Shown: piece by piece, positions 2,811 through 61,564 of the stretch
How positions within the stretch are numbered: position 1 is the stretch's first letter
How the letters are laid out: each line of letters begins with the position of its first letter
Assembly: GCA_016206925.1 (NCBI GenBank)
Contig: JACQQS010000055.1
Coordinates: 1-62,639, forward strand
Length of the DNA stretch: 62,639 bases
DNA from: Candidatus Omnitrophota bacterium
GTDB lineage: Bacteria; Omnitrophota; Omnitrophia; Omnitrophales; JACQQS01
Direction: 5' to 3'
Notes under the pieces: generated by a model
Told to the model about the DNA's origin: nothing
Databases searched by the model: none
The model's input: only the letters and a program-made list of their open reading frames with translations
Translations under genes and position numbers: made by a program

Positions 2811-3759
<949 letters not shown>

Positions 3760-25403: not shown

Positions 25404-25461
25404 TTATCCCTGCGGAAGCGGAGATCCATTAGTAACAGATTCCCGCTTTCGTGGGAATGAC
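25404..25461. repeat. REP-like palindromic element, copy a (degenerate left arm)
   Basis: ttatccctgcggaagcggagatcc ... gattcccgctttcgtgggaatgac. The right arm matches copies at 58731..58787 and 61460..61564. Confidence 0.6.
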
Positions 25462-25477
25462 AGAGGATCAAGAGTTT

Positions 25478-35839: not shown

Positions 35840-35868
35840 TTGACTTGAGCAGAGAACTCACCTATAAT
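35840..35868 (+). promoter_or_regulatory. Near-consensus sigma70 promoter
   Basis: TTGACT (35840..35845), a 17-nt spacer, then TATAAT (35863..35868). Confidence 0.6.
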
Positions 35869-35874
35869 TCCCCG

Positions 35875-36067
35875 CACTGTGATGAACGCCGCTGAAACGT
35901 GCAAGTTTCATCGTGCTTCGATGGAAAACGGGCGGTTACCTTAATAGTTTCAATGCGGAATTGACTAATTCGGAGCGAGAGAATTGCGAGAGAAAATAAA
36001 TCAGTTCAATTCATCTCGTTAAACAAGCAAATGGATAGTGCATCTATATGTACTATCCAATTTTTTT
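35875..36067 (+). ncRNA. Candidate ~190-nt orphan transcript (sRNA or tiny-ORF mRNA) between mnmE and nrdJ
   Basis: Bounded by the promoter at 35840..35868 and the intrinsic terminator at 36033..36067. The only reading frame is a 20-codon ORF (MNAAETCKFHRASMENGRLP) without a Shine-Dalgarno sequence. Confidence 0.35.
36033..36067 (+). terminator. Rho-independent terminator
   Basis: ggatagtgcat ctat atgtactatcc forms an 11-bp stem (one G.U) with a 4-nt loop, followed by aa + ttttttt (36061..36067). Confidence 0.7.
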
Positions 36068-36326
36068 CAGTAAACTTTTCAGGATCAACCCGGTGATACC
36101 GATTGTAAGCGGGTGCTGCAAAATAACGGATGAAAAGCAGTCGGTGTCCAAACTGAAGTTTCGAAATATTCCCACAGCATTTCGTTAATTTAACGTGATT
36201 TCATTTAAAATCACCAAAGAGATTTTTTGCCTACTGCTACAAGATATGGGGCAATTAATTTCATAAAGCCCCATATTGAGTAGTATAATGATATTGCGCT
36301 GTATCTTGGAAAAGCAGGGATTCTGC

Positions 36327-36430
36327 CTTTGAATTCGTCAGCACCGACGTTCACGTCGTGTGAACGTTGTGGTGCAGTCCTTGCTTCTGGCAATCCTGCC
36401 AGAAGCAAGGGCAGGAAGACGAATTCAAAG
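36327..36430 (+). promoter_or_regulatory. Three-stem structured element in the nrdJ upstream region (cis-regulatory RNA or composite repeat element)
   Basis: P1 ctttgaattcgtc / gacgaattcaaag (13 bp, 36327..36339 with 36418..36430) encloses P2 acgttcac/gtgaacgt (36447..36467) and P3 ccttgcttctggca/tgccagaagcaagg (36379..36410). P3 is homologous to the sucD-insert hairpin. Confidence 0.5.
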
Positions 36431-36550
36431 ACTGCCCTCGATTTTTGCAGGATTGCAAAATCGTGGGGCTGGGCGTTCTGGAAAGCATAAAGCTTGATCA
36501 AAAGGGTGGAAGCAAAGGATCGATATACGGCAAATTAAGGAGATAAGGGA

Positions 36551-39500
36551 ATGGCAAAAACAACAGCTCAAGAATTAGGAGAACAACTCACAAAACGGCC
36601 TCCGGCGGGTAAAGCGCAAGCGCAAGGTGGTTTAAAGATAAAACGCTTTTTTACCACACCAAGCGTTAACCCTTTAGATGAGATCGAAGTGGTTAAACGA
36701 TCCTCGGCGATTGTCAATACGGACGGCTCCATTGTATTTAAGATGGAGGATGTGGAAGCTCCGAAGGCGTGGTCCCAATTGGCAACGGACATCCTTGTTT
36801 CCAAATATTTCCGTAAGGCTGGTGTACCGGATGCAGGTCACGAGACAAAAGCCAAACAGGTGGTACACCGCATTGCGCATACGATACGCACGGCCGGCGA
36901 AGCAGGACGCTATTTCTTTGGCAAGGAAGACGCAGATGTATTTGAGGCGGAATTGGCTGAAATGCTGATTACGCAAAAAGCCGCGTTTAATTCCCCCGTT
37001 TGGTTCAACTGCGGTCTTTATCACGAATATGGAATTATCGGCAGCGGTGGCAACTACTATTGGAACCCGGAAATCGGCAAGGTTGAAATGACCGCTGATG
37101 CTTATTCTCATCCCCAATGTTCCGCCTGTTTTATCCAAAAGGTTGAGGATGATTTGATGTCGATATTCGCTTTGGTAAAGAGCGAGGCAAGATTATTTAA
37201 GTTTGGATCCGGAACGGGGACAAATTTTTCTTCTTTACGCGGCCGCCAGGAGAAGCTTTCGGGCGGGGGCACTTCATCAGGTCTCATGTCTTTCCTGGAA
37301 GTGTTTGATCGTGCGGCAGGAGCCACCAAGTCGGGCGGCACTACGCGCAGGGCCGCCAAGATGGTGTGTTTGGATCTGGGTCATCCGGAAATCGTTGACT
37401 TCATTAATTGGAAAGTGCGCGAAGAAAAGAAGGTGAAAGCCCTTGTTTCAGGCGGCTATCCCTCGGATTTTAATGGCGAGGCTTATAAGACTGTTTCCGG
37501 TCAGAACTCAAATAACTCAATACGTATAACAGACAAATTTATGGAAGCAGTAGAAAAGGATGGTTCTTGGTCTACAACTTTTCGAACAACGGGGGAGATT
37601 TGTGAAACCTTTAGAGCCCGTGATTTAATGCGTCAAATCTGCGAAGCTGCTTGGGAGTGCGCTGATCCCGGAGTCCAGTTTGATACGGCCATCAATGAAT
37701 GGCATACCTGCCCCAACACCGATCGAATCAATGCATCAAACCCTTGTTCGGAGTATATGTTTCTGGACAATAGCGCTTGCAATCTTGCCTCAATCAACTT
37801 AATGAAATTTGCGCGCGAAGACGGCTCGTTTGATGTCGAAGCATTCCGCCACGCAGTTCAAATATTCATTATCGCGATGGAAATCATAGTGGGCATGTCT
37901 TCCTACCCGACCGAAAATATCGCAAAGAACAGCCACGATTACCGGCCTTTGGGCTTGGGGTACGCGAATCTGGGAACCTATCTCATGATTAACGGTGTTC
38001 CCTACGACAGCGAAGAGGCCCGTAGTATCGGCGCAGCCATAACGGCGATCATGTGCGGCCACGCCTATAAGACTTCTGCCGAAATGGCCCGTGAGGTAGG
38101 CGCATTCCCAGGATATGAAAAAAACCGTGACCCTTTCCTCCATGTGATGGAGAAACATCGGAACGCAAGTTACAAGATTCCTGCGCGCTACTGCCCGGAG
38201 TATTTATTCAAGGCGGCTCAACAGGATTGGGATGACGCGGTGTTTTTGGGCGAGCACTACGGGTACCGAAATGCACAAGCAACAGTGATCGCGCCTACCG
38301 GAACGATCGGCCTGCTTATGGACTGCGATACGACCGGTATTGAGCCTGACTTTGCCCTGGTGAAGTTCAAAAAGCTCTCTGGCGGAGGATATTTTAAGAT
38401 CGTGAACCAATCCGTTCCGCGTGCACTTAAAAGATTGGGGTATACGCCGCGTCAGGTAGCGGATATTGTCCGCTACATTCAAGGGACGTTGACTTTGCAA
38501 GGCGCTCCGTATGTAAACGCCCAGGCGCTAAAGAACAAAGGCTTTCTGGATGAAGACGTTGAGAAGATAGAAAGCCGTCTTCCCTCTGTATTTGAGCTTT
38601 CCCACGCTTTTACGCGTTGGGTGTTGGGAGATCAAGCGGTAGAGAGGCTGGGTTTTAAAAAGGCGCAGTACGAATCGCCTGATTTCAACTTACTGCAGTC
38701 TTTGGGATTTACGGCAGATGAAATCGGGGAAGCCAATGAGGTAGTATGCGGCCGCATGACCATTGAGGGTGCTCCGCATGTGAAAGATGAGGATCTGCCG
38801 GTTTTTGATTGTGCCAACAAATGCGGAAAGAAGGGCAAACGGTTTTTAAACCCGATGTCACACATACGGATGATGAGCGCTGTCCAGAAATTCATATCCG
38901 GCGCCATCTCCAAGACCGTCAATCTTCCGAACGAAGCGACGGTGGAAGATATCGAACAGACCTACTTTGAAGGATGGCGGCTGGGCCTTAAGGCCGTTGC
39001 GCTTTACCGGGATGGCTGTAAATTGAGCCAGCCGCTCAGCACCTCTTCGGACAATACCAAGAAAGAGAAAGAAGGCGCATCAGCTGTAGCCGAGTCCTCG
39101 GCACAAAAGACTTCGGCGCAACCCATTTTGAAACGCAGACGTTTGCCGAAGAAAAGAGGCGGTTTTACCCAAGAAGCCAAAGTGGGAGGGCATAAAGTTT
39201 ATTTGCGGACCGGCGAGTATGAAGATGGCGGCTTGGGGGAAATCTTTCTTGATATGCACAAAGAAGGAGCGGCGCTTAGGAGTATGATGAACTGCTTTGC
39301 CATTGCTGTATCCTTGGGGCTTCAATACGGCGTTCCACTAAAGGAATTTGTGGATTGCTTTACTTTTACCAAATTTGAACCGCAAGGTTCCTGTGACCAT
39401 CCGAACATCAAGCGGGTAAGCTCCATCATTGATTATGTATTTCGAGTATTGGCGATGGAGTACATGGGGATGTATGATTTTGTCCAAGTAAAGCCTTCGA

Positions 39501-39862
39501 TCGATGATTATGGCAATCATTCGGAGGAGAACGGAGAGAAAAACGGTTCAAACGACGCTCATTCAAAAAAATCAGGGCAAAAAGCATACAAAACGGCAAC
39601 CGAAAAACCTTCGCTGGTTAGCAGCAAGGAAATTAAACTTGTTAAAACAGACGCGTCTAATAAAGGAGAGCCAACAGCTGTTCCGACATTGCTTGAGCGG
39701 CCGGCTGAAAGTTACGGCGTTCATTTTGTGGATACGCTCGATGATCATCTTAGTGAGATGATGGGCGATGCCCCTTTTTGTGACGTCTGCGGTCATATCA
39801 CGGTTAGAAGCGGCTCGTGCTACAAATGCCTGAATTGCGGGAACTCGATGGGGTGTTCTTGA
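36551..39862 (+). CDS. nrdJ: Class II (adenosylcobalamin-dependent) ribonucleoside reductase
   Basis: 1103 aa. Active-site region [22 protein letters not shown]-terminal Cys4 ribbon [21 protein letters not shown]. Confidence 0.85.
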
Positions 39863-56780: not shown

Positions 56781-59153
56781 ATGAGGAAAGGAGCGCTTAA
56801 GGTTTTCATACTTTGCATGCTGACGATTTTCATCAGTTTGCAGAGTAATATTCAATTATATGCCCAATTGTCGGAGGTCGGCGACACCATTAATTTTACG
56901 TCCAGCGAGATATCTGTACAGGCGATCAGAATGGTTGACAATACTTCCCGCTTGCTTACTTTTGAGCGGCCTGTTGTCCGGACAGCGATAGGAGATGCGG
57001 CTGTCGCCGATGTGGTGGCGGTCAGCCAAAAAGAAATATTGGTTGTAGCCAATACGGTGGGGAACACCAACTTGGTGATTTGGGAAGCGGGCGGTATTAG
57101 TGAGACTTTTCAGGTTTTTGTAGAACGCGATCCGCATGTGCTCGAGGACCTTATCGAATCCCGGTTTCCCGGAATAGATATTAAGGTACATTCGGTAGGC
57201 GAAACCTTCGCTTTAACAGGTGAGATCGATAATGCACAGGAGCGGACCGAAGTCATGGAGCTTGCCGAGCGCTACGCGGCCGGAGCGGTGGACATGATGA
57301 CGTTGAGGTTGCCGAAGCAGGTTTTAATCGACGTGTTTTTTGTCGAACTTGACAGGACGGATTCGGATGATTACGGATACAGCTGGCAAAGCATAAGCAA
57401 ATACATAAATTTGTCCTCATTTGCGGGAAATGTGGCGGGGCAAACGTTCGTCGATAACGACTTGTCAGCCGCCAAAGGCGCGTTTACTACAGACTCGTTA
57501 GCCATTGACAGAAGCGCTACCTTTCCTACGATTAGTTATATCGATGGCAAAACCAATTTGCTGTCGACCCTTGAGTTTTTGGAGTCAAAAAATTTCCTGA
57601 GGGTTATTGCCAAGCCTAAGCTTCTTGCAAAGGACGGCGAAGAAGCCGAATTTCTGGTAGGGGGACGTTTTCCATTCGCTACGGTTCAGGACGGATCTAC
57701 CAACGTTCAGTTTGAAGAATTTGGCCATGAGCTCAGGTTTAAACCGGAAATTTTGGAGGATGACATCATCCGCCTAACCGTTGAGACCATCGTGAGCGAG
57801 CTGAATTTCGCTTCCACCTTGACGATCTCCGGTAGTACCGTTCCTTCTATTATTGAGAACAATGCAAAGACGGTAGTGGAATTGAGGGATAAGCAGACGC
57901 TTGTCATCGGCGGATTTATCTCCAAACGCACAAACGACACAAGGACAAGCGTTCCTTTTCTTGCGCAAATTCCGGGGATCGGGAAGATGTTTCGAAGCGG
58001 AGATCTTGAGACGCGCGAGCATGAACTCATCTTCATCATAACGCCCCACGTCATTCTTCCTATGGAACTGGAAGAAGCTCAAAAAGCAGGAGATTTCTAC
58101 GATCCGGAGAAAATCGACCGTGTTATCCGCATTGAGGATCTTCCGGACGAAAATTATCAGGCCGATGCGCTACGCGGCGCGCTTCGAAATTATGAGGTGA
58201 ATCGAATGCTTGCCGAGCAGAATTCAACCGAGTCGATGGAAACCGTTAAGCCCGCTGATCTGGCATCAGAAGCATCTCATGCAGTCGATCTAAGCGGTAA
58301 ATCCGGGCAGGAAAGCGGCACGGGGATGAAGGAAGAAACCGGCGGTGGATTTGAAGAGCCCATGCTTAATAAAGGCAAATTCGAGTTGGATCAAGCACTT
58401 AAAAACTTGCCCTCGGATGACGGAACCATGAATGCCGATAGGGTGCCTCTGCCGTTTGATCAAGCGCCGGTTGTTCGCGGGGCGGCATTTGATCATCCCG
58501 AAACTTCGCAGAGCGTGCTTGCCGCCTTTCAGACGTTTATGAAGAACCGCATGATTAGAGACAACAATCGATATGTCTTAACGACGGAATCAAAGGAAGA
58601 TTTAGAAGATGTCGAGCTCGATTTCGAGCAGCCCGTTGTTACGCCCGCAGCTTATGTACAAGAAATCCCACAAGCTCCAAAACAAGTTGTTCAGTTAAGT
58701 GAAGCGGCTCCCATAGAGCATTACAAAGATGTCATTCCCGCGAAAGCGGGAATCCAGTCTCTAGACGCCCGCTTTCGCGGGGTCGACTTAAATACGGAAG
58801 CGTTGCCGGAGGCATTAAATGCGCTGAGTGAGAGCGCAATGGAAATACATTACAAGGACATAAGGTCGTATCCTTCGGCAGCGTATCAGGAAGCCATAAG
58901 CGCAAGTCAGCAGACGATGGCGGCCGGAATTCCTGGCGATAGACATTATCAAACAGTCGGGCCGGCTATTAGAGATTCCGTAACCGACGGGTCGGTCATG
59001 TCCTCCGAAAATATTTCGAGATACAACTCGGGAACGCGAAACTTTCGCATGTCTCCCGGGCATTGGAGTTCTATCGAACAGAATAATTTTAGGCGAGAAC
59101 AGGAACGCATAGACCAGTTTTTTGACAGCTTGGATGCGAGGAAAAATATCTAA
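56781..59153 (+). CDS. cpaC: Tad secretin CpaC/RcpA with ~370-aa C-terminal extension
   Basis: ATG 56781 is preferred over GTG 56775. Pilus N-terminal domain (LLTFERPVVRTAIGDAAVADVVAV...LVVANTVGNTNLVIW). Secretin core (VPFLAQIPGIGKMFRS...LIFIITPHVI). A long non-secretin tail follows. Confidence 0.8.
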   Translation: MRKGALKVFILCMLTIFISLQSNIQLYAQLSEVGDTINFTSSEISVQAIRMVDNTSRLLTFERPVVRTAIGDAAVADVVAVSQKEILVVANTVGNTNLVIWEAGGISETFQVFVERDPHVLEDLIESRFPGIDIKVHSVGETFALTGEIDNAQERTEVMELAERYAAGAVDMMTLRLPKQVLIDVFFVELDRTDSDDYGYSWQSISKYINLSSFAGNVAGQTFVDNDLSAAKGAFTTDSLAIDRSATFPTISYIDGKTNLLSTLEFLESKNFLRVIAKPKLLAKDGEEAEFLVGGRFPFATVQDGSTNVQFEEFGHELRFKPEILEDDIIRLTVETIVSELNFASTLTISGSTVPSIIENNAKTVVELRDKQTLVIGGFISKRTNDTRTSVPFLAQIPGIGKMFRSGDLETREHELIFIITPHVILPMELEEAQKAGDFYDPEKIDRVIRIEDLPDENYQADALRGALRNYEVNRMLAEQNSTESMETVKPADLASEASHAVDLSGKSGQESGTGMKEETGGGFEEPMLNKGKFELDQALKNLPSDDGTMNADRVPLPFDQAPVVRGAAFDHPETSQSVLAAFQTFMKNRMIRDNNRYVLTTESKEDLEDVELDFEQPVVTPAAYVQEIPQAPKQVVQLSEAAPIEHYKDVIPAKAGIQSLDARFRGVDLNTEALPEALNALSESAMEIHYKDIRSYPSAAYQEAISASQQTMAAGIPGDRHYQTVGPAIRDSVTDGSVMSSENISRYNSGTRNFRMSPGHWSSIEQNNFRREQERIDQFFDSLDARKNI
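58731..58787. repeat. REP-like palindromic element, copy b, in frame inside cpaC
   Basis: gtcattcccgcgaaagcgggaatccagtctctagacgcccgctttcgcggggtcgac, translated as VIPAKAGIQSLDARFRGVD. Confidence 0.65.
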
Positions 59154-59178: not shown

Positions 59179-61452
59179 GTGAAAAAATCCAAAAAGGGGT
59201 TGGTGAACATGAAGGCAAAACCTTCGTCAAGTCAAAGAGGATCGATCATTGGTACCCTGGTAGTTTTTATGACGGGTTTGATTGCGCTTGCGGCGCTTTG
59301 CCTCGATTTTGCCATGATGACTTCGTACAAGCGTTCCGTACAAAATGTGGCGGAAATGATGGCCATTGCGGCAATGGGATATCACACAGACGAAAACTTC
59401 GATAAGACGATATCAGGGCTTACCCTGAACCAGCAGCATCAGGCCAAAGCAGCGCTGGGGTTAAGGAATGCCTACTTTGTGTGGCAGTCAACCATTAGTT
59501 CGCTGGCAGACTCGGATAAGTTTGTGGATCCCTTTGGAGGAGTGAACTGGAGCACACAATACGAGAATATGATGACCGATCTTACGAATGGCGGTACATA
59601 CACATGGACATTTCCAGACGGCTCATACGCATCCAGCAATATCCGCTTTCTAGAAAAGGGTGGAGCAAATTATGTGGAACCCTCTGGGTTATTTAAGAAT
59701 GTAGCGGATCCTCTCATCATTCGTGCTACAAAGAATGAAATTAACACAACCGGCACCGGTTCCGGTTTGACAACCATTCTTGCTCATTATTTCGGATTTA
59801 AAAATTTCATGGTCAAAGGCAGCACATTGGCTGAGGTGAACAATACGGGAAAGGCAAACTCTGTAGTTTTGCTTCTTGACCGGAGCATATCCATGGCCGG
59901 CATGTCGGGAGATGCCGGTTACTTGCAACCCGGTGATGCTAATTATGACCCACGGTATCCGGGTTTGAGCGTATTCGATCTTTCGGCGATGACGAATACG
60001 GCGGCGACTATCCAGCCGATCACGAATATGTTGTATGCAGCGCGGCTTGTTCCGAAAACGCTTGGCCGAGCCAACTGGTTTAATGATAATCCAGCCAAGA
60101 ATAGCAGTCTGGGCTTCGTGGCATTTGATCTTGTCGCAGAAAGCGTGGATGCTCCTCCTACCAACTTTGACCTGGACTTTAACACATGTGCAGGATGCGA
60201 CAACTACAATAATGCGTATAAGACGATCAAGGATAGGATGAATGCACATATTCCCGTAATGGGACGGCCCGGCTTGCCGCAAATAAATCTCTGTGCCGAT
60301 GTTGGATGCAGGGATTGCAATACGGCCGGGTGTGCAAGTACTTGCAATCCGCTGTTCAATAATATTTTTTACGCGGCTTCGGAAGCAAAATGCATAGTGG
60401 ATGTTTTCGGAAACACCGCTCGCCCTGAACCTTCAACCGAACTCGACAGTATGTTTCCCTGGACAGCGTCCAACGAATCTCAGGGATTGGAAGTCGCCGT
60501 AGAGCTGATTCGGCAGGAAAGAAAACGTTTCTTTGACACATTCAACGGCCCCAATTTTGACATAGACAGCGAATTTCAGGGGCAGATTATCCTTTTCTCA
60601 GATGGTTTTGTGGAAGCTTTCCACGATCGAAACGCCACGCTAGACGCGTTTCCGCAAAAGTGTAATAGCGGCGGTTGTACCTTATGTGACAGCTTGCTTA
60701 CGGTCACCCACAACATAAGAGAATTTGCACCACCTCTAGATCCGGGTCCCGGCAATCCGGTGTATCAGATGGAAATCATTCCGGCCGGCTGGAGAAAAGA
60801 TTTTAACTCCAGCGGAGAACCGCGAGTAACTTGGGCAACCACGGTTTGCCCAAGCCTCGAAACTTTCGGCCCGTGTTTGGAACTTTATCATGACGGCGCG
60901 GCTCTTTACAAAAATCAACTGCCGGCAGGCAAACAATGGTTTGGTCCGAACGATCCTCCGCAGCCGGTTCCGGAAGGCCTTTACAATGTAAGTACCGTGG
61001 ATATTTCGCTCGCTCTGGCTACTCCTCGGGCAGCGGGCGGGCGTTGTCCTGGAACCGACTGCGCCGGCGCAATTGTGGCACACGAGCATCAAGATACTGC
61101 AGATACGGTTCGCAGACCAAGCATTAACCTTTACTGCCCTGATTTGCATTTCATGGACCACGTTGACTGGGCTTATGCAAACAACATCATTATCAATACG
61201 GTTGGTTTTGGGGACATTGGAACCGCATATAATCCTAGCGCCCCCAACAATAATATGCGCAGACAATTTTTGCTGAGATATGCCACAGCCCCTAATAATT
61301 ATGATCAAGACGCTTCCAATAATACGGCTACCGACAAAGGATTTTTCTTAACCAGCGCTGATGCCAACTGCAACGCTGCGGGTACAGGCTGCCCGAAGTT
61401 TGAGAGCGCATTAAAGAGAGCATTTACAAGTTTTGAGGCGAGATTGAAATGA
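59179..61452 (+). CDS. tadG: TadG-like pilus-associated protein with vWA domain, Cys-rich
   Basis: 757 aa (GTG 59179; alternative ATG 59209). TadG-type N-terminal hydrophobic segment RGSIIGTLVVFMTGLIALAALCLDFA. MIDAS-like VVLLLDRSISMAG. More than 20 Cys occur in CxxC-like clusters. Confidence 0.7.
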   Translation: MKKSKKGLVNMKAKPSSSQRGSIIGTLVVFMTGLIALAALCLDFAMMTSYKRSVQNVAEMMAIAAMGYHTDENFDKTISGLTLNQQHQAKAALGLRNAYFVWQSTISSLADSDKFVDPFGGVNWSTQYENMMTDLTNGGTYTWTFPDGSYASSNIRFLEKGGANYVEPSGLFKNVADPLIIRATKNEINTTGTGSGLTTILAHYFGFKNFMVKGSTLAEVNNTGKANSVVLLLDRSISMAGMSGDAGYLQPGDANYDPRYPGLSVFDLSAMTNTAATIQPITNMLYAARLVPKTLGRANWFNDNPAKNSSLGFVAFDLVAESVDAPPTNFDLDFNTCAGCDNYNNAYKTIKDRMNAHIPVMGRPGLPQINLCADVGCRDCNTAGCASTCNPLFNNIFYAASEAKCIVDVFGNTARPEPSTELDSMFPWTASNESQGLEVAVELIRQERKRFFDTFNGPNFDIDSEFQGQIILFSDGFVEAFHDRNATLDAFPQKCNSGGCTLCDSLLTVTHNIREFAPPLDPGPGNPVYQMEIIPAGWRKDFNSSGEPRVTWATTVCPSLETFGPCLELYHDGAALYKNQLPAGKQWFGPNDPPQPVPEGLYNVSTVDISLALATPRAAGGRCPGTDCAGAIVAHEHQDTADTVRRPSINLYCPDLHFMDHVDWAYANNIIINTVGFGDIGTAYNPSAPNNNMRRQFLLRYATAPNNYDQDASNNTATDKGFFLTSADANCNAAGTGCPKFESALKRAFTSFEARLK

Positions 61453-61459
61453 CATGGAT

Positions 61460-61564
61460 GTCACCCCCGCGAAAGCGGGGGTCTAGTACTGAATTCCTGC
61501 TGGAGTTTACCTCGGACTGGATTCCCGCTTTCGCGGGAATGACAGATCCGGGGCGGGAATGACA
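61460..61564. repeat. REP-like palindromic element, copy c (expanded spacer plus an extra half-site)
   Basis: gtcacccccgcgaaagcgggggtc (61460..61483), a 35-nt spacer, then ggattcccgctttcgcgggaatgac (61519..61543), then ggggcgggaatgaca. Confidence 0.65.

Follow-up and report, generated by a model that had tools for sequence, protein, structure and literature searches.

Nested palindromic repeats between a predicted NrdR operator and nrdJ in an uncultured Omnitrophota bacterium

An NrdR operator is made up of two partially palindromic 16-bp boxes with a linker of 15-16 bp between them. The conserved positions within a box are C4, A6, A8, T9, T11 and G13 (PMC13584703). A very different kind of palindromic DNA is found in small repeat elements such as REP. 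In PMC3733652 the REP palindrome is described as tagged with GTAG or CGTC at one end, and REP hairpins are reported to affect mRNA turnover (PMC3479197 and PMC3733652).

The region upstream of nrdJ that is described here resembles both. It lies in a contig of 62,639 nucleotides, and this whole stretch of analysed DNA is called the window below. The genome (G000) is an 87-contig, metagenome-assembled draft of 2.01 Mb from an uncultured member of the Omnitrophota, and is 86% complete. With a probability of roughly 80%, the region is a composite: an ordinary promoter-operator, followed by a later insertion of repeat DNA.

The gene itself is straightforward.

36551..39862, plus strand: nrdJ, a 1103-aa ORF with its ATG at 36551, B12-dependent (class II) ribonucleotide reductase

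A search of a large protein collection shows that homologues carry PF08471, PF02867 and PF12637. In their sources they are named 'vitamin B12-dependent ribonucleotide reductase [Candidatus Omnitrophica bacterium]'. An exact look-up of the NrdJ sequence found no record. For comparison, 24 nrdJ loci were taken from members of the order, all of them outside the genus and family of this bacterium. Two relatives whose NrdJ is closer (81% and 79% identity) came from the protein collection search. The first of these is called L074, and it has the same folC-mnmE-nrdJ gene order.

A sequence-only reading had described a series of hairpins upstream of nrdJ, and all of them are indeed present where it placed them. 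They start with a 9-bp inverted repeat, ATATGGGGC/GCCCCATAT.

36244-52 / 36268-76: the 9-bp inverted repeat
36284-89, plus strand: TATAAT, the -10 hexamer of the nrdJ promoter
36327-39 / 36418-30: P1, 13 bp
36347-54 / 36360-67: P2, 8 bp per arm
36379-92 / 36397-410: P3, 14 bp
36440-62: the last hairpin

When 36290-36555 is folded as RNA, the minimum free energy structure reproduces the three-way junction of P1, P2 and P3, and also the last hairpin. The fold energy is -108.2 kcal/mol, against -75.9 +/- 4.9 for shuffled sequences (z = -6.63), and none of 200 shuffles equals it. Perfect hairpins whose stem reaches 11 bp or more are rare here: there are 55 in the genome, versus 3 in a block-shuffled genome.

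The first inverted repeat and the TATAAT had been taken as parts of one structured RNA. They are better assigned to a different kind of site, upstream of the likely transcription start. The stretch 36237-36289 is a predicted NrdR operator that overlaps the nrdJ promoter, and thus a candidate protein-binding DNA site instead of an RNA hairpin.

36237..36252, plus strand: NrdR box 1, CTACAAGATATGGGGC, 6 of 6 conserved positions, 15.2 bits with a matrix from relatives' boxes only
36268..36283, plus strand: NrdR box 2, GCCCCATATTGAGTAG, 5 of 6 conserved positions, position 11 being G and not T
36260..36289, plus strand: sigma-70-like promoter TTCATA - 18 nt - TATAAT, 10/12 in a consensus scan, overlapping the NrdR boxes

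The linker between the boxes is 15 bp, which puts their centres 31 bp apart, against 31-32 bp in relatives. Box 2 is weak, at 4.1 bits. Together the boxes are still the top tandem site in the 2.01-Mb genome, scoring 19.3 bits versus 16.3 for the next site when the matrix is built from relatives only. Paired boxes of the type ACACAAGATATGGTAT, again 31-32 bp from centre to centre, occur upstream of nrdJ in 22 of the 24 relatives from the order. In those 22, a -10-like hexamer adjoins the second box or overlaps with it. Homologous boxes are also found upstream of nrdJ in L074. The genome encodes nrdR as well (C50:52083-52526; 182 bits with TIGR00244, whose cut-off is 124.65).

The boxes happen to form a 9-bp inverted repeat, and could be seen as a hairpin, because the right half of box 1 is a half-site of the same palindromic consensus as the left half of box 2. 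A consensus scan finds no other promoter-like site between the promoter at 36260-89 and the nrdJ ATG, and transcription would start near 36296. By analogy with the known NrdR system, NrdR loaded with dATP/ATP would bind the 36237-36289 operator and block RNA polymerase.

The best single box in the genome is elsewhere: a near-perfect NrdR-like box, ACACAAGATATTGTGT, at C3:6771-6786, with 19 bits. As a second NrdR operator it was rejected, as it lacks both a partner box and a neighbouring reductase gene.

The spacer between mnmE and nrdJ is 854 nt long and contains something else. At 35840-36066 there is a strong promoter-like TTGACT-17-TATAAT with 11/12 matches, and about 165 nt after this promoter comes a 12-bp hairpin and then T7. 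This looks like a transcription unit without an ORF. A similar TTGAC(T/A)...TA(G/A)AAT promoter follows mnmE in relatives from the order and in L074. In most relatives a boxA-like GTTCTTTGA and a terminator then come between the mnmE-side promoter and the NrdR boxes. Rfam was run on the 35840-36066 unit and returned nothing. This unit may be an undescribed small RNA.

Downstream of the operator the picture changes. To judge by the order of the stems and their flanks, a small repeat unit with two hairpins occurs here twice, one copy nested in the other, and together the copies account for P1, P2, P3 and the last hairpin. The unit is about 84 nt long, and in the aligned copies it reads CAGC(A/C)CC - hairpin A - (A)G(G/T)GCAGTC - hairpin B - GGCAG. 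Hairpin B has a stem of 12-15 bp and the apex GCAGTCCTGC. Both loops, A and B, and also the linker carry the motif GCAGTC/CAGTCC. The block is laid out as follows.

36307..36315, strand not assigned: left flanking direct repeat, TGGAAAAGC, read from sequence
36479..36486, strand not assigned: right flanking direct repeat, TGGAAAGC, matching the left copy at 8/9 positions
36314..36473, minus strand: outer repeat unit, covariance model match 36371-36473, 37.6 bits
36473-63, minus strand: 5' motif of the outer unit, CCCAGCCCCAC
36462-40, minus strand: hairpin A of the outer unit, which is the last hairpin
36439-31, minus strand: linker of the outer unit, GAGGGCAGT
36430-18 / 36339-27, minus strand: hairpin B of the outer unit, which is P1
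36326-14, minus strand: 3' part of the outer unit, GGCAG plus a mini-hairpin
36340..36417, plus strand: inner repeat unit, 78 nt, filling the loop of outer hairpin B, with 41 nt that match the sucD copy at 85% identity
36487..36550, plus strand: native nrdJ leader, aligning with the L074 leader, with the Shine-Dalgarno AAGGAG at 36537-42, unpaired in the fold

On the minus strand, 36473-36431 reads CCCAGCCCCAC-GATTTTGCAATCCTGCAAAAATC-GAGGGCAGT, followed by CTTTGAATTCGTC ... GACGAATTCAAAG-GCAG, which is P1. The flanks of the outer unit, CGAGGGCAGTC-TTT and AAAG-GCAG, are identical to those of the copies on contigs C7, C12 and C3. Since P1 thus has canonical flanks on both sides, it is hairpin B of the outer unit. 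It had also been noticed earlier that the last hairpin is close to the reverse complement of the first hairpin of an insertion in sucD. This is right, as it is a copy of hairpin A on the minus strand, and the sequence of its flank, CGAGGGCAGTC, recurs unchanged as the linker of three other copies.

The inner unit runs in the other direction. Its order is AGCACCG, then P2 in the position of hairpin A (36347-67), a linker ending in GTGCAGT (36368-78), P3 as hairpin B (36379-410), and finally GCAGGAA. Its covariance-model match on the plus strand spans 36334-36418 and scores 80.9 bits (E = 8e-15). P3 and its 5' flank had been proposed earlier to be homologous to the sucD insertion, and this is borne out at 85% identity over 41 nt (36372-36412 versus 2971-3011, repeat family D14). 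This means that the apparent three-way junction arises because one unit is nested in the apex of another, in the opposite orientation.

A fragment of 31 nt at C65:26429-59 reproduces the junction of P1 arm, AGCACC and P2 arm with 2 differences (E = 9e-6). Because the fragment carries the nested junction, the nested composite, or a part of it, has itself been copied elsewhere. The GGCAGGA at the 3' side of the inner unit matches the canonical apex of hairpin B, which hints at an insertion guided by microhomology.

A genome-wide search for the hairpin modules, which the sequence-only reading had proposed, finds five more copies of the unit in the genome, the one in sucD included.

C12:4570-4653: unit copy, found by blastn-short and R1
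C7:27902-27985: unit copy, found by blastn-short and R1
C3:40047-40135: unit copy, found by blastn-short and R1
C47:11675-11758, minus strand: unit copy, found by blastn-short and R1
2934..3017 of the window, plus strand: sister copy in sucD, in frame, R1 79.8 bits

R1 is a covariance model built from six copies, and it finds those six at 69-102 bits. The seventh match in the genome is the minus strand of the leader, 36371-36473, at the 37.6 bits given above. The genome total comes to 7-8 units. Known contexts are the 5' leader, the inside of sucD, the DNA after groEL and the DNA after a tRNA. Six of the seven placed copies are co-oriented with the flanking genes.

Outside this genome, a search of 96 genomes of the order with R1 turned up a single true unit, in G003, which belongs to another family. 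It sits directly after a tRNA-Gln gene and overlaps the 3' end of the tRNA. More precisely, at positions 1438-1584 of locus L035 (G003:C168) the unit starts within the last bases of tRNA-Gln(CTG), a position typical of integrating elements. A sample of 401 genomes of the phylum contained no unit according to R1. Weak R1 matches in G025 and G035 turned out to be merely B-like hairpins inside other repeats. The pattern GCAGTCYTTNNTTCYGRCNNTCNTG was also searched in all GTDB species representatives and in JGI metagenome contigs; there the only genuine match is the one in G003, and the other matches lack a hairpin and are down to chance. As far as these searches reach, the repeat family is narrow and low-copy.

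It is not the only palindromic family around. A second one has the form (G)CAATTTC-NNNN...NNNN-GAAATTG(C), with variable inner stems that are compensated. Its sites in G000 include C3:40165, C17:33015, C1:47316, C29:14720, C33:80621 and C72:35367. One of its copies adjoins the A+B unit after groEL, so repeat modules cluster as mosaics. The window further has a widespread palindrome type, ATTCCCGC-GAAA-GCGGGAAT (families D9 and D15), at 25438-25464, 58720-58790 and 61449-61546, and one of these copies lies inside a coding region.

The comparison with relatives indicates that the block is an addition. In L074 the operator reads ATACAAGATATTGGGC-15-CCCCCATATTCTGTGG, followed by TATACT, and the leader then aligns on both sides of the block: GCGC(T/C)GT...AAAG on the left, and AAGCTT...AAAAGGGTG...TTAAGGAGATA on the right. 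L074 has nothing that corresponds to approximately 36316-36478. The distance from the -10 box to the ATG is 96 nt in L074 versus 261 nt in the window. In the 22 relatives with clear boxes, box 2 is 22-196 nt from the ATG, typically about 40, versus 267 nt in the window. For the relative at 79% identity, the contig begins just 88 nt upstream of the ATG, and there are no hairpins in the sequence that is present. In all, P1, P2 and P3 occur in 0 of the 24 leaders from the order, and they are absent from the closest relative too.

By these alignments, about 165 nt of repeat DNA is a lineage-specific insertion in a leader of originally about 100 nt, with boundaries that are accurate to a few bases only because the nearest empty leader is at only 81% NrdJ identity. 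An empty-site allele would join TGGAAA(A)GC directly to ATAAAGCTT.

The sucD copy tells a similar story. It keeps the reading frame open, and SucD residues ~46-65 have no counterpart in any of the 13 relatives that have sucD. In these relatives the match splits into query residues 2-45 and 66-313, which are contiguous in their own DNA (13/13). The sucD copy is, by this comparison, lineage-specific too.

Direct repeats flank both of the insertions for which a comparable empty site exists, the one in the nrdJ leader and the one in sucD. In sucD the direct repeat overlaps the 3' end of the element itself (AAGGGC...), so it may be microhomology and not a target-site duplication.

The stems change in a compensated way, and here the earlier reading was half right. 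It held that the stem differences between the two copies of P3 preserve pairing, and that this shows the structure to be under selection. The changes are real: among eight copies of hairpin B, 5 of 13 stem positions have double changes that preserve pairing, or 7 of 13 if P1 is included. The exceptions are one copy with a G-T pair and one with a 3-nt deletion. Hairpin A also changes with compensation, and its stems in C7, sucD, G003 and P2 all differ. But the copies compared are paralogues from unrelated loci, so the covariation is a property of the repeat family and no proof of selection on the structure of the nrdJ leader or for nrdJ regulation. What the aligned stems do show is that the ability to form hairpins matters for the repeat family, presumably through propagation or through arm-on-arm templated repair. 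The almost perfectly kept stems, together with the co-orientation, would also fit a role of the unit at the RNA level.

If the composite reading is right, the unit would spread or be copied at the DNA level, with its hairpin-forming ability preserved among copies. The block in the leader would then be transcribed and carried passively in the 5' UTR of nrdJ as a set of stable hairpins. These would leave the ribosome-binding site free and would at most affect mRNA stability, which would make the insertion close to neutral. Because no moving enzyme has been identified and the copy number is low (7-8), mobility is deduced from the distribution of the units.

A search of the genome for RAYT genes gave a sole Y1_Tnp match, on contig C83, of 28 bits in a 450-aa ORF. 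This ORF reads YYVTLDG where the HUH motif is expected, and there is no unit on that contig. The N-terminus of the protein encoded at C83:8300-9650 (L072 577-1929, minus strand), IPAFAGVT, resembles a translated palindromic repeat.

An inserted block might in the meantime have become useful. It could now serve nrdJ, for example by protecting the mRNA from decay that depends on the 5' end, or by offering a processing site through which reductase levels are tuned. The block is very stable and separates the promoter of an essential gene from its ribosome-binding site, most of the repeat units point in the direction of transcription, and comparable REP hairpins are reported to influence mRNA turnover (PMC3479197 and PMC3733652). 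However, the block is missing in L074 and in all other orthologous leaders, which means that any role in nrdJ would be very recent. It also lacks any nrdJ-specific sequence feature. The same unit is found inside sucD, after groEL and after a tRNA. A function for nrdJ is on the whole unlikely, although it has an outside chance.

A somewhat bolder idea concerns the unit itself. It could be an undescribed small mobile element that is recognised via the thrice-repeated GCAGTC/CAGTCC, and that targets sites resembling its own 3' end or hairpin apex. The nrdJ copy would then have been kept for its mRNA-stabilising hairpins. Resemblance between element and target fits the self-nesting in the loop of hairpin B, the AAGGGCGGC in sucD and the 3' end of tRNA-Gln. 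The chances of this complete scenario are slim.

The sequence-only reading had also put forward a cis-regulatory RNA that controls the B12-dependent reductase. As a dedicated, riboswitch-like RNA it would sense a nucleotide or B12 and so regulate the class II enzyme. A multi-stem three-way junction in a 5' leader, with stem changes that are compensatory relative to another copy, is indeed what such an RNA could look like. Rfam 15 is however empty for the leader, both at gathering thresholds and at E <= 10. A wider Rfam run with gathering and permissive thresholds, on the window plus 13 and 5 related loci, found nothing relevant. The structure is present in 0 of 25 related leaders (24 from the order plus L074), and the covariation is among paralogous repeats whose loci are unrelated, one of them lying in coding DNA.

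There is no expression platform either. No leader stem is followed by a U-tract, and the one terminator-like element that was called, at 36314-26, consists of 5 pairs without a T run. No helix sequesters the Shine-Dalgarno sequence, which lies 75 nt past the last hairpin. The conserved NrdR operator, moreover, already explains the regulation of nrdJ. A B12 riboswitch in particular was dropped for lack of an Rfam match. Such riboswitches usually control B12-independent isozymes rather than nrdJ. A dedicated regulatory RNA is altogether very improbable.

An assembly artefact, meaning a chimeric or foldback join, is barely credible: an 87-contig draft can contain palindromes created by assembly or amplification errors, but independent copies with individually compensated stems are found on six contigs and in a second genome, and the block is internal to a 62-kb contig, between intact conserved flanks.

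This leaves the composite of operator and inserted repeats as the preferred reading, which agrees with the other half of the earlier proposal, a nest of mobile hairpin modules. Speaking for it are the further copies in the genome, the nesting in opposite orientations, and the block's absence from the leader of the closest relative.

The locus is a useful warning. Palindromic repeats that are nested can pass for a multi-stem regulatory RNA, and covariation between paralogous repeats can be mistaken for selection on a leader structure. In addition, NrdR control of nrdJ appears to be conserved across an order of Omnitrophota, in genomes that almost all come from uncultured organisms. Repeat DNA of this family is tolerated in a 5' UTR, within an essential coding sequence and on the 3' side of a tRNA, which are three very different contexts. 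The family could help find the machinery that copies such elements.

The candidate operator shares with known NrdR operators the 16-bp boxes, the linker, the conserved positions, the promoter overlap, the presence of nrdR in the genome and the order-wide conservation upstream of nrdJ. It differs in the departure from T11 and in the weakness of box 2.

The repeat unit is like REP, BIME and REPIN sequences in that its palindromes are short, near-perfect and mostly extragenic, with compensated stems, and occur in both orientations in mosaics and in transcribed spacers. In contrast to REP, which typically has more than 100 copies per genome, there are 7-8 copies here. The unit has no GTAG or CGTC tag, and instead carries GCAGTC before its hairpins and CAGTCC in their loops. 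There is also no RAYT gene flanked by units, as there would be in a REP/RAYT system. BIMEs alternate side by side, whereas the units here are nested.

As with the RPE, a small hairpin repeat without a known transposase is tolerated both in frame in an essential gene (sucD) and in non-coding DNA. Unlike the RPE, the unit has an unrelated sequence, is from an unrelated phylum and has a much lower copy number. In-frame insertion into coding sequence, the mark of the RPE, is seen for the family in its sucD copy; the leader copy is in a 5' UTR.

MITEs, finally, are likewise small non-autonomous insertions with short direct repeats, which here match at 8/9 bp in the nrdJ leader and measure 9 bp in sucD. 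The unit differs from them in having no terminal inverted repeats (its ends are CAGC... and ...GGCAG), and no parent insertion sequence was found. The earlier statement that the block would be novel on either reading goes too far, since small palindromic repeats of this general kind are already well known. The unit is a new, small member of that known class of palindromic repeat elements.
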